A stretch of DNA of 64,000 nucleotides, taken from positions 1-64,000 of the forward strand of contig CAWENF010000014.1 in NCBI GenBank assembly GCA_963810275.1. The letters are read 5' to 3'. The position numbers and the translations under genes were made by a program. The stretch is from an uncultured archaeon (lineage in GTDB: Archaea > Thermoproteota > Bathyarchaeia > Bathyarchaeales > Bathycorpusculaceae). The notes beneath the pieces are model-generated. The model was not told the origin of the DNA, ran no database searches, and was given only the letters and a program-made list of their open reading frames with translations. Shown piece by piece: positions 3,049 through 48,841 of this stretch (position 1 is its first letter; every line of letters begins with the position of its first letter).

Positions 3049-4152
3049 ATGGCAGAAAAAGACCTTGGATACCGAAGAGTCCAATGCACAGGCAGAGGCT
3101 CCTACATCATCAGCCTGCCCAAAGAATGGGTAGAAGACATAGAACTAAAACGTGGCAGCGAAATCGCCTTCACCATCCAACCTGACAATACCCTAAACCT
3201 AATCCCACGCAAGATCGCAGAAAAAGAAGGCAGAACCGACCACACCAAACTCAAAGAGTATTACATAAGCGTCGACCCCAAAGATCCTCAAGAAGCCACC
3301 CTACGCATGGTAAAAGCACTCTACGCCATCGGAGCCGACATTATCCGCATCCGCTTCAAAAACCCCAAAGATGCCTCCAAAAACAAAAACGAAACCAAAA
3401 ACTTCGTCCGAGATACCTTTTTAGGAGCCGAAATAATCGACGAAACACCTGAAGAAATCACATTGCAAATCCTTATAAAACACAGCGAGTTTGGCGTTGA
3501 AAAAGCCGTCCGCCGCATGGCAATCGTCGCCTTAGCAGCCAACAGAGACGCCATAGCTTACTTCGCCGACCGCAACCCCTCATTGTTCGAAAGCGTCTTA
3601 AATGCCCGAAACGATGTCAACCGCCTTGGACTATACATCGTACGCCAACTCAAATACGGAATAGAACGCAACCTCTACCGTGAACTGGGTTTCCGAACTC
3701 CCAAAGAGTTCCTGCTACACCGTATAGCCGTGAACGACATCGAAAATATAGCTGAAAACGCTCTAAACATCGTCAACAACATAGGCGCCTTCCAGAAGAA
3801 AATCGACGATCAAACGCTCTTCTTGCGCGACCCCATCGACGAAGAGGTGTATGGGCAACTTACCAGGTATTATGGTGAAGCTCAACAGTTCTACGAGGAT
3901 GCTGTTAAGGCGGTATTTAAGCGAGACTATAAGGATGCTGAGAAACTGATTTCCAAACGCGAAGGGCTGGTTGCGCTGGAAAACGAGTTGATGATGCTGG
4001 TTTCAAGCAAGAAAATGGATCCCAACGTCACCGCCATTCTACGCCTTATTTTCGACAGCGCCAAACGCATCTTGGACTACGGCAGAAACATGGCAGAACT
4101 TACGCTTAATCGCACTGTAGAAGAACTCTGCGCCAACTTGACCTATAAGTAA
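3049..4152 (+). CDS. AbrB-PhoU family regulator
   Basis: N-terminal RRVQCTGRGSYIISLPKEW AbrB motif followed by helical PhoU-like repeats (IENIAE, AKRILDYGRNMAE). Confidence 0.88.
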   Translation: MAEKDLGYRRVQCTGRGSYIISLPKEWVEDIELKRGSEIAFTIQPDNTLNLIPRKIAEKEGRTDHTKLKEYYISVDPKDPQEATLRMVKALYAIGADIIRIRFKNPKDASKNKNETKNFVRDTFLGAEIIDETPEEITLQILIKHSEFGVEKAVRRMAIVALAANRDAIAYFADRNPSLFESVLNARNDVNRLGLYIVRQLKYGIERNLYRELGFRTPKEFLLHRIAVNDIENIAENALNIVNNIGAFQKKIDDQTLFLRDPIDEEVYGQLTRYYGEAQQFYEDAVKAVFKRDYKDAEKLISKREGLVALENELMMLVSSKKMDPNVTAILRLIFDSAKRILDYGRNMAELTLNRTVEELCANLTYK

Positions 4153-46753: not shown

Positions 46754-47398
46754 TTAACTTCCTGCCTGTAGCAGCTTAGATTTCTCCTCGTCGGTTAACT
46801 CTTTGTAACCGAGCTTGGTGATTACTATAATGTTGTAGTTGTTGCCGCTTGCTACGTCGCGTTTCATGGCTGCATTGACAGCCTTAGCGATGGTAGGCAA
46901 CGTTTCTTCTATAGTGGAGTCTTCTTTGAATTTGTCTTCCAAAACACCATAGGCAACTGGGCTGCCGCTGCCGGTGGAAACCATTTTTTCTTCGGTTAAG
47001 CTTCCGTAAGGGTCCAAGTTGAACACGTGAGAACCAGATTCGTCTACGCCGCCGACAAGCACTTGAGTTTGAAGGGGAATATATCTGCCTTGGAAAAGAA
47101 GGTTTGCAACCAGTCTTGCCGCTGAAGCAATAGGTATGGGGCGGTTCAGGTTGGTTTTGTAGAGTTGAGCATTGGCGGTTAAGATGTCGACGACGCGTTG
47201 GGCATCTGCGACTGTTCCGGCGATGGTCATGCCGATGTGGTCGTCAATTTTGTAGACTTTTTTGCCTGCTTTGTGAGCAACGTAGTAACCCATGGTTACA
47301 CGGGTGTCAGAGGCTAAGATTACGCCGTCTTTGCATACGACGCCGATTGTTGTGGTTCCTTTGAGGATTAATTGGCTAGCTGGGTTATTTTGTGACAT
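46754..47398 (-). CDS. psmB: Proteasome beta subunit
   Basis: LKG|TTTIG propeptide cleavage site, ASDTR, GSGS and RDVASG. Confidence 0.97.
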   Translation of the reverse strand: MSQNNPASQLILKGTTTIGVVCKDGVILASDTRVTMGYYVAHKAGKKVYKIDDHIGMTIAGTVADAQRVVDILTANAQLYKTNLNRPIPIASAARLVANLLFQGRYIPLQTQVLVGGVDESGSHVFNLDPYGSLTEEKMVSTGSGSPVAYGVLEDKFKEDSTIEETLPTIAKAVNAAMKRDVASGNNYNIIVITKLGYKELTDEEKSKLLQAGS

Positions 47399-47567
47399 AG
47401 TTTTTTGCTCCTAAAACTCCGTTTTGCGGAATGCCATCCACTAGGAAGATGCATGAAGTAATCAATCTATGAGCCTAATTAATATTTCGCCAAACATTTA
47501 GAGCAACATATTCCCATATAGAAGTGGCAAAGAGAGGAACATTTTTAGGTAACTGGCGATGTTAGTT

Positions 47568-47644
47568 GCAACTCGGCGCGTGAGTGGTGCTTCCCACCCG
47601 TTGCGCCAAATAAAATAAAACCCGGAGTAGGGAGGCAAATACAG
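47568..47644 (+). promoter_or_regulatory. Structured 5' leader of queT-queC, candidate riboswitch
   Basis: Stem GGCGCG/TGCGCC. The loop segment TGCTTCCC is complementary to GGGAGGCA covering the SD. A-rich linker between them. Confidence 0.5.
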
Positions 47645-48175
47645 TTGAAAATACGAACCAAAGATTTAGCTCTAATAACAATATATGCCGCTTTATATGC
47701 GGCGCTTGTAGTTGGATTAGCACCACTCTCTTATGGACCCCTTCAAATTAGAATCGCCGACGCTATGGTTGCATCAATACCCATCTTTGGCATGGCTGGT
47801 GTTTTGGGACATACACTGGGCGTTTTTGTTGCGAACATGTTCTCACCTTTAGGATTTATTGACTTACTCAACACCATCCCCTCGTTTGTTATGGCATTTG
47901 TGGTTTATTATGTGTATAAACGCACACAAAACGACTACACCATCATCGCTACGTGTCTGACGTATTCAGCGGTTTTGGGCGTTACAGTAGGCTGGATGCT
48001 GTCCCTTTTTGGGGCTCCACTGCTCTTAACTATGGCGTACGTTGGAATTGGCAATGCAATCGCAAGCGTAGCAATCGGTTGGCCCATCTTCAAAGTGCTC
48101 AAAAGCATCGGCGTCTACAAATGGTTCTGCAACTGCACGTACGCCCAGCCTCCGGCAGGCAATGGTTCAAGTTAA
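47645..48175 (+). CDS. queT: QueT-family 7-deazaguanine precursor transporter
   Basis: AALYAAL...PLSYGPLQIRIADA...GVFVANMFSPLGFID, with multiple TM helices. Confidence 0.9.
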   Translation: MKIRTKDLALITIYAALYAALVVGLAPLSYGPLQIRIADAMVASIPIFGMAGVLGHTLGVFVANMFSPLGFIDLLNTIPSFVMAFVVYYVYKRTQNDYTIIATCLTYSAVLGVTVGWMLSLFGAPLLLTMAYVGIGNAIASVAIGWPIFKVLKSIGVYKWFCNCTYAQPPAGNGSS

Positions 48176-48187
48176 TGGTGAAAAAAT

Positions 48188-48841
48188 ATGGAATCAAGAA
48201 AATGTATAGTCGTCCTAAGCGGCGGACCAGACTCCGCAGTTGTAGCGCACTGGGCTAAAGCTCAGGGTTACCAAATCCACCCCATCACCTTCAAGTATGG
48301 GCAAATCGCCGAGAAAGAAACCCAAGCTGCAAAACAAATCGCCGAGAAACTTGGTACCACAACCAAAGTCATTGACCTCTCAGCGCTTAAAGAAATCTTT
48401 AGCGGCAACACCAGTCTGGTTAGCCGCGATATTCCGTTAACAGCGCAGTTCAGCAGCCCCATCATCGTACCCTTCCGAAACGCCATATTCCTGTCCGCGG
48501 CTGTTGCCTACGCCGTCACCGCCGGAGCACAAATAATCTTTTACGGCGCACACGGCAGCGACGAGCCATTCTACCCTGACTGCCGCAAAGAATTCTACGA
48601 AGCGTTCGAAAAAGCCGCCCGGTTGGGCACTGACTGCAAAATCAGCATCCAAGCACCGTTTAGCGAACTCAAAAAATCTGAAGTTATAACAGAAGGCGAA
48701 AAACTCAATGTACCCTTTGAGTTAACCTGGTCCTGCTATCTCGACGGCAGCAAACACTGTGGAAGATGCGAGTCCTGTGTCAACCGCAGAAAAGCATTCA
48801 AAGAAGCAGCAATCTCTGACCCAACAGCCTACGATGCTTAA
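48188..48841 (+). CDS. queC: 7-cyano-7-deazaguanine (preQ0) synthase
   Basis: LSGGPDS, YGQ, VPFRNAIFL, YPDCR and TWSCY...HCGRCESC. Confidence 0.96.
   Translation: MESRKCIVVLSGGPDSAVVAHWAKAQGYQIHPITFKYGQIAEKETQAAKQIAEKLGTTTKVIDLSALKEIFSGNTSLVSRDIPLTAQFSSPIIVPFRNAIFLSAAVAYAVTAGAQIIFYGAHGSDEPFYPDCRKEFYEAFEKAARLGTDCKISIQAPFSELKKSEVITEGEKLNVPFELTWSCYLDGSKHCGRCESCVNRRKAFKEAAISDPTAYDA

Follow-up and report, generated by a model that had tools for sequence, protein, structure and literature searches.

A conserved pseudoknot in the queT-queC leader of Bathyarchaeia: a candidate 7-deazaguanine riboswitch of a new class

In this study, we examined the leader of the queT and queC genes in a 64,000-nucleotide (nt) stretch of contig CAWENF010000014.1 (assembly GCA_963810275.1, an uncultured archaeon of the class Bathyarchaeia), the whole of which we call the window, and relate it to queT leaders elsewhere in this class and its phylum. 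Compensatory base changes among related leaders show that its RNA is built, as predicted from sequence, as an H-type pseudoknot, in which the 3′ part of the loop of a hairpin (P1) pairs with the downstream tail as two stacked helices, P2a and P2b. That this RNA element is real we have little doubt. Most likely, it would act as a cis-acting regulatory RNA and is a candidate translational OFF riboswitch; the best explanation of the leader is a new class of 7-deazaguanine riboswitch, which we put forward with moderate confidence.

A pseudoknot maintained by compensatory change

The initial annotation, made from the letters of the window, had paired GGCGCG with UGCGCC, noted eight contiguous pairs between the loop of this stem and the Shine-Dalgarno (SD) region, and seen an A-rich linker joining the two. 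All three are found in the sequence (Table 1), the linker reading AAAUAAAAUAAAAC at 47608-21. P1 comprises five Watson-Crick pairs plus G47580-U47602, while P2b, formed by UGCUUCCC and GGGAGGCA, contains one U-G pair among its eight and covers the SD, GGGAGG, together with two flanking bases, the SD standing 9 nt from the TTG start codon of queT (47645). To these we can add a further element, P2a (ACCCG with CGG(A)GU), through which the 3′ half of the loop pairs nearly end to end with the tail. The P1 loop measures 21 nt, its 7-nt L1 running into a paired segment of 13 nt; P1 through the SD spans 63 nt (47575-47637), and the whole motif has about 75 nt and three helices.

A DNA pattern that covered P1, both ends of the loop and the last part of the linker, and that held neither an SD nor a gene, matched at least 120 loci when one genome per species was scanned. 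In a MAFFT alignment of 150 distinct leaders, with pairs counted for the pseudoknot, 94.8% were paired overall as against 87.0% in column shuffles (0 of 500 reached the observed value) and 42-63% when the partners were slid by one to three columns, and both-side changes occurred in 10 of the 18 pseudoknot pairs. P1 was paired in 100% of cells, its first pair being G-C in 145 leaders, A-U in 2, U-A in 2 and G-U in 1, its fifth G-C in 138 and C-G in 12, and its closing pair G-U in 150 of 150; at the one S/S position where the pattern allowed a mismatch, the 120 matches listed held 111 G/C, 9 C/G and no mismatch. P2b was paired in 92%, with both-side changes in six of seven counted pairs, as exemplified by an SD-flanking pair that occurs as C-G (51), U-G (21), A-U (20), G-U (19), U-A (15) and G-C (4). 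P2a was paired in 92.2% in register with one bulged base: all 11 classifiable sequences with U as the second loop base have CGGA in the tail, and those with C have CGGG (58), CGGA (36), CGGU (32) or CGGC (5). Compensatory change among aligned sequences thus shows all three predicted helices to be maintained.

The same structure emerges when leaders are chosen by protein homology alone. QueT homologues were present in 49 of 61 related genomes, and among the stretches of DNA read upstream of 50 QueT genes, 43 carried the motif, 6 a different second leader and 1 neither; a covariance model (R1), trained on the 150 sequences with P2 given as the structure, recovered the same 43 of 50 loci. These 43 leaders were 93.4% paired compared with 88.9% in shuffles (0 of 500) and at most 65.8% when slid, with six double-change pairs, a result that held regardless of three rows that MAFFT had misplaced in P1. 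Their common layout (GGCGSG, U-R-R-G, a variable stretch, the anti-SD, A, CCCG, UU, SCGCC, an A-rich linker leading to AAA(A/C)CCC, CGG..U, A and the SD) persists though the QueT proteins are as low as 24-40% identical to that of the window, and the unpaired bases U-R-R-G, GUU and AAAMCCC are strictly conserved in the protein-anchored leaders. Orthologous leaders in Bathyarchaeia, to which the initial annotation had looked for a check, and beyond that class therefore do keep the stem and the anti-SD:SD helix with covariation.

Across 148 loci, TATA-like hexamers cluster between -36 and -31 from the first P1 base and are almost absent elsewhere, and A+T reaches 81-91% at -34 to -29. The window's TTTTTAGG, previously called TATA-like at 47542 and read by us at 47542-47549, begins at -33 and so falls within this peak. 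Given this position and the usual archaeal distance of approximately 26 nt between TATA box and start, transcription is predicted to begin about 2-8 nt before P1, near 47569-47573, which would make the motif the 5′ end of the mRNA, with a leader of about 47570-47644, in line with the initial annotation.

This promoter bears on the view that conservation acts at the level of DNA, with inverted repeats serving as operators and queT being transcribed without a leader from a TATA box that is the A-rich linker itself (often UAUAAA). A TATAAA linker does lie about 30 nt before the start codon in many members, a spacing that suits a leaderless transcript. Nevertheless, a separate TATA-like peak exists upstream of P1, nearly every member retains a strong SD 5-10 nt ahead of its start codon, and the three "repeats" interleave as a pseudoknot. 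Moreover, G-U and U-G pairs are frequent in all helices and G-U closes P1 throughout, which argues that conservation acts on RNA, not DNA, and leaves the operator view highly improbable.

Downstream genes, distribution and locus context

Downstream of the 120 pattern matches listed stand QueT (113), QueC (1), QueE (2), membrane proteins without a family (3) and a contig end (1). The link to 7-deazaguanine genes drawn from the single locus in the window is thus borne out, 116 of these 120 matches preceding queT, queC or queE. For the first 80 matches, 79 open reading frames (ORFs) were scanned, that of L091 at a contig end being too short, and QueT was identified in 69 by Pfam and in 70 by a local hidden Markov model (HMM), with 3 more in a corrected frame; the remaining 40 were all QueT by the local HMM. 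The ORF at L094 is QueC (6.5e-63), that at L117 a QueE candidate (TIGR04349, 4.4e-30, below its cut-off), and that at L067 QueE by eye only. Beyond the pattern, 23 of 23 weaker or out-of-class model matches that were fetched precede QueT. Every identified gene beneath the motif therefore serves 7-deazaguanine synthesis or uptake, and none is a general purine gene. The three unannotated proteins (L083:5727-6563(-), L092:863-1555(-) and L100:4162-4866(+)) are multi-pass membrane proteins with no Pfam or NCBIfam match; a language-model look-up placed that of L100 near archaeal "ECF transporter S component" clusters (score 0.94, a lead only), and the three may represent another family of 7-deazapurine importers.

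The start codons of motif-bearing queT genes vary. Read by eye at the SD-spaced position and in frame with the conserved N-terminus, apparent starts other than ATG, GTG or TTG include CTG (L004, L006, L024, L082, L087, L108), ACG (L047, L048, L102, L103, L127) and ATA (L088). Such weak start codons suggest deliberately weak initiation. Two loci of one family (L032 and L040) carry an operon queT-queC-queT, in which the second queT directly follows queC and the motif stands at the first only. At L005, queT has a 23S rRNA gene for a neighbor, the 3′ end of which (3210-3471) is about 1.7 kb away, an ordinary context.

Within Bathyarchaeia, R1 was found in 94 of 151 sampled genomes and in 73 of the 95 high-quality ones, usually once per genome, and QueT was present in 112 of the 151. 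Across the phylum, 29 of 151 sampled genomes matched, 16 of them outside the class: nine of 15 in family f44, three of three in f56, two of two in f60, one in f64 and one, weak, in f47. Of 80 record titles among the matches listed, 66 name Bathyarchaeia, Bathyarchaeota or Bathycorpusculum and the other 14 name Methanomethylicota/Methanomethylicus (3), Nitrososphaerota/Nitrososphaeria (5), "archaeon" (3), Promethearchaeati (1), Methanocella (1) and a Methylomirabilota bacterium (1); these records are metagenome bins, in which stray labels may be binning errors. Among the matches listed, the motif is confined to archaeal records save for that one metagenome-binned contig labelled as a bacterium.

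Some queT genes are preceded by something else. In one high-GC family, queT lacks the motif and directly follows a tRNA gene at a short TATA-to-start distance, and in another high-GC family the queT leader is short as well (loci of the two families: L223, L225 and L226). The second, shorter leader (L027-L031, L034, L210-L215) precedes a paralogous QueT that is approximately 32% identical to that of the window. Its 5-bp hairpin pairs GGUAG with CUACC, UUU following the first of these strands and AAC preceding the second; then come UUAAAAAAC and a CGG able to pair with a loop CCG. By the features described in a 2024 review (PMC11625349), it resembles a preQ1-I type pseudoknot, and Rfam gave no match to it at E<=10. 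It was found in 6 of 401 genomes of the class, all of family f1 and with too little variation for covariation, and one genome (G029) carries both leader types.

In the window itself, queC begins 12 nt after queT ends, so the two genes probably form one operon. QueT is by family (Pfam PF06177) the substrate-binding (S) component of an energy-coupling factor (ECF) transporter for a queuosine or archaeosine precursor. Upstream of the leader, on the opposite strand, lies a proteasome subunit gene (46754-47398), and downstream of queC a converging gene for a Y-family DNA polymerase (DinB). Of the contigs examined, which came from one DNA run and three metatranscriptome runs, those of RNA cover the proteasome gene and a piece of queC, with the leader and queT uncovered. 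The contigs of the minus-strand proteasome gene all end 30-40 nt upstream of its start codon (47428-47438) in the three metatranscriptome runs, a weak hint of its mRNA 5′ end, given that contigs cannot show RNA ends. A sigma-70 promoter and terminator scan was set aside as inapplicable to archaea; its two terminator-like sites sit within queT, at chance level.

Table 1 Coordinates of the leader elements and genes in the window
Feature	Position	Strand	Remarks
TATA-like box TTTTTAGG, queT-queC promoter	47542-47549	+	Purine-rich stretch before it, 47530-41
Predicted transcription start	47569-47573	+	From TATA position and usual spacing; R1 match starts at 47572
Whole motif	47572-47648	+	Covariance model R1, 71.2 bits, E 1.1e-14; sole match in the window's genome
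P1 5′ strand GGCGCG	47575-47580	+	Partner 47602-07
L1/J1 UGAGUGG	47581-47587	+	Conserved; left unpaired by the pseudoknot
Inner hairpin GUGG/CCAC	47584-87 / 47594-97	+	Alternative pairing of L1
Anti-SD UGCUUCCC (P2b 5′ strand)	47588-47595	+	Partner 47630-37
P2a 5′ strand ACCCG	47596-47600	+	Pairs with C47623, G47624, G47625 (A47626 bulged), G47627 and U47628
L2 U47601, then P1 3′ strand UGCGCC	47601-47607	+	GUU precedes the stem in nearly all members
L3, A-rich linker AAAUAAAAUAAAA then CC	47608-47622	+	Present in all members; length variable; invariant AAA(A/C)CCC end
P2a 3′ strand CGGAGU	47623-47628	+	Alignment columns 60-68
P2b 3′ strand GGGAGGCA	47630-47637	+	Contains SD GGGAGG, 47630-35
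queT	47645-48175	+	TTG start; Pfam PF06177, 6.1e-25
queC (7-cyano-7-deazaguanine synthase)	48188-48841	+	Pfam PF06508, 3e-62

Mode of control and probable ligand

Since no run of T follows the motif, translational control is the likelier mode. In the pseudoknot, L1 (UGAGUGG) is left to cross P2. In the mechanism that we propose, a plentiful effector would behave like the ligands of small pseudoknot riboswitches: bound among P1, P2a, L1, L2 and L3, it would lock P2a and P2b with the SD out of the ribosome's reach. When the effector is scarce, the loop would fold on itself through GUGG/CCAC, the SD would be free, and the transporter and QueC would be made. As rough values before any pseudoknot penalty, the computed energies are -16.9 kcal/mol for P2 alone, -9.1 kcal/mol for P1 alone, -15.8 kcal/mol for P1 with the inner hairpin, -20.7 kcal/mol for the nested minimum free energy (MFE) fold and -21.9 kcal/mol for the duplex of loop and tail, the last matched by 1 of 1000 shuffled tails. 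By these calculations, the pseudoknot and the open states would be of similar energy, fitting a balanced switch. In nested folding, the leader does not outdo its shuffles (z -0.17 for 91 nt and -1.30 for 261 nt), which is uninformative because the folding program cannot form pseudoknots.

Of two competing pairings suggested earlier, one stood. GUGG/CCAC (47584-97) is present, and across the family it is 93.2% paired as compared with at most 71% when slid, but shows little covariation. The other, GCAAC 47568-72 with GUUGC 47600-04, was rejected, its stretch being unconserved and partly upstream of the predicted transcript start. We likewise rejected an alternative helix, GGGUG/YACCC: the GGCGCG variants disrupt it, and it is within P1 that their change is compensated. 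A small CCC...GGG hairpin from the nested MFE fold can form in many members, not all, and competes with the SD helix.

The length and stability of P2 (-16.9 to -21.9 kcal/mol) would suit a structure that responds to no ligand and that permanently damps, or makes temperature-dependent, the translation of a membrane protein needed in small amounts, and the weak starts of many motif-bearing queT genes (TTG and, apparently, CTG, ACG and ATA) point the same way. We regard this as quite unlikely: it leaves unexplained both the strict conservation of the unpaired U-R-R-G, GUU and AAAMCCC and the presence of the motif before the soluble QueC and QueE.

If the leader is a riboswitch, its ligand can be approached through the gene content of these archaea. 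The genome of the window (92.6% complete) encodes QueT, QueC and one TGT-family gene with a DUF5591 domain, and in it QueF and PTPS/QueD were not found and QueE had no credible candidate. This gene set suggests salvage of a precursor such as 7-carboxy-7-deazaguanine (CDG) or 7-cyano-7-deazaguanine (preQ0), not de novo synthesis. QueF was above cut-off in only 1 of 151 sampled genomes of the class, whose members thus appear not to make 7-aminomethyl-7-deazaguanine (preQ1); as a free base, the last product of the pathway would be preQ0, which archaea insert into tRNA to make archaeosine. The near absence of QueF makes preQ0 the most likely ligand, and the initial preference for preQ0 over preQ1 fits these findings. 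CDG is a possible effector as well, as the genome may import a precursor via QueT and finish it with QueC.

A riboswitch for some other compound, be it guanine or another purine, CDG or the archaeosine base, would accord with the apparent lack of QueD and QueE, given that CDG or preQ0 may enter through QueT and that each might be the compound sensed, and with the missing specificity cytosine of class I. The identified genes, all of them for 7-deazaguanine synthesis or uptake and none for general purines, speak against it, and we give it a shade less credence than a ligand-independent structure.

Covariation and gene association demonstrate a functional RNA, not its partner, and the pseudoknot might instead be read by a protein or another RNA: a translational repressor, arcTGT or an archaeosine-pathway enzyme that recognizes a tRNA-like feature, or an uncharged or unmodified tRNA. 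In favor of such a partner we count the A-G-U-G-G of J1, which, by eye, we take to resemble the tRNA D-loop around G15, the archaeosine site. On the other hand, the motif is accompanied by no candidate regulator gene, its flanks varying from the proteasome subunit and DinB here to others elsewhere, and in bacteria a compact pseudoknot with an A-rich linker ahead of que genes is the hallmark of metabolite sensing (PMC11625349). We thus consider a protein or RNA partner unlikely, while deserving of some weight. In a bolder variant, the leader imitates the D-loop through its A-G-U-G-G stretch, and arcTGT reads or even modifies it; this seems to us hardly credible at best.

Several points weigh against a 7-deazaguanine riboswitch as described here. 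P2, at 13 pairs, is long and might form without ligand, and a U stands before the P1 3′ strand where preQ1-I has its specificity C. P2a is not universal, one subfamily (L026, L191-L197) having AAAA in place of its CGG partner, and in two high-GC families queT has a short leader that lacks the motif. Two of the "double changes" in P2b amount to one coordinated length change of 1 nt (CCUCC:GGAGG against CCUCCC:GGGAGG), which is itself evidence of pairing, but as one type of event, not two. Relatives are not independent, so the shuffle controls overstate, and the pattern that supplied 120 of the 150 aligned sequences fixes most of P1, J1, L2 and the end of L3, which inflates single-strand conservation; for the unpaired bases, the 43 protein-anchored leaders and the model matches alone provide a fair measure.

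Relation to known riboswitches

As judged by eye, the leader had initially been said to match none of the preQ1 classes I, II or III exactly, and searches with Rfam release 15 concur: stretches of 501 nt and 91 nt gave no preQ1-I, -II or -III and no other meaningful match at E<=10, and 13 related loci gave nothing relevant. Searched genome-wide, the preQ1-I model (RF00522) scored no higher than 15 bits (cut-off 39), and this at unrelated places, while as a control it scored above cut-off in 1 of 14 named genomes, as expected. According to the 2024 review, preQ1 riboswitches fall into three classes, all bacterial (PMC11625349), and a 2017 census lists for archaea TPP (thiamine pyrophosphate) and fluoride riboswitches and rarely FMN (flavin mononucleotide), Mg2+-I and guanidine-II, bacterial classes that occur in archaea as well (PMC5473149). 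Our literature search, with supplementary motif lists outside its scope, returned no archaeal preQ0 or preQ1 riboswitch, no fourth class and no description of this motif.

The closest likeness is to preQ1-I, which is also an H-type pseudoknot before que genes, with a hairpin, an A-rich linker and a 3′ tail that pairs with the loop and includes SD bases; even the linker end and tail (a run of A, C, and CGG pairing with loop CCG) correspond. The differences are nonetheless considerable. The motif is about twice the size, its 63 nt from P1 to SD and 7-nt L1 comparing with a minimal aptamer of approximately 34 nt and an L1 of 2-3 nt, and its loop has 21 nt as opposed to about 12. Its long loop segment (L1) lies 5′ of the pseudoknot helix, whereas in preQ1-I this segment lies 3′, and the whole SD with its flanks is paired (13 pairs) instead of two to four SD bases. 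GUU, rarely GAU or GCU, precedes the P1 3′ strand, where preQ1-I has UC or AC with the specificity cytosine (PMC11625349). Finally, the motif is archaeal and preQ1-I bacterial. Membership in preQ1-I is excluded by the size of the motif, by where its long loop lies and by its lack of the specificity cytosine.

With preQ1-II (RF01054), the motif shares a place before queT, a probable control of translation only, an A-rich junction after the first hairpin and a complete SD held by Watson-Crick pairs in the pseudoknot helix next to the presumed pocket. That class is described as an HLout pseudoknot of four helices with an inserted P4 hairpin and a pocket at a three-way junction, reported from Bacillota only (PMC11625349); in the motif, no conserved P4-like hairpin or U-rich triplex strand was seen, the CCC...GGG hairpin of the nested fold being the sole candidate for an insert of this kind. 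Like preQ1-III (RF02680), the motif precedes queT and has an anti-SD in a hairpin loop that pairs with an SD in the 3′ tail. PreQ1-III, however, has about 100 nt and five helices as compared with about 75 nt and three, with a pocket far from the SD helix, and is reported from Ruminococcaceae and metagenomes only (PMC11625349).

Generic hallmarks of a riboswitch are present in the motif, namely a structured 5′ leader with covariation and a consistent association with the genes of one pathway. SAM-II and SAM-V (S-adenosylmethionine) riboswitches provide an architectural parallel, being H-type pseudoknots with a loop strand in the groove of a long second helix, in which the ligand closes the helix that holds the SD; they differ from the motif in ligand, genes, sequence and organisms, and gave no Rfam match at E<=10. 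Taken as a whole, with chances that we put slightly above even, the motif would constitute a fourth structural class of 7-deazaguanine riboswitch, the first native to archaea, which would sense preQ0, not preQ1, and shut off the translation of QueT, QueC and QueE in most Bathyarchaeia and in Methanomethylicus-type archaea. If true, this would provide a well-studied family of ligands with a new aptamer fold, would indicate that riboswitches acting by SD sequestration work in archaea of this phylum, and would offer a handle on the salvage of archaeosine precursors in uncultured Bathyarchaeia. At about 75 nt, the RNA is small enough for the claim to be tested directly in vitro without growing the organism.

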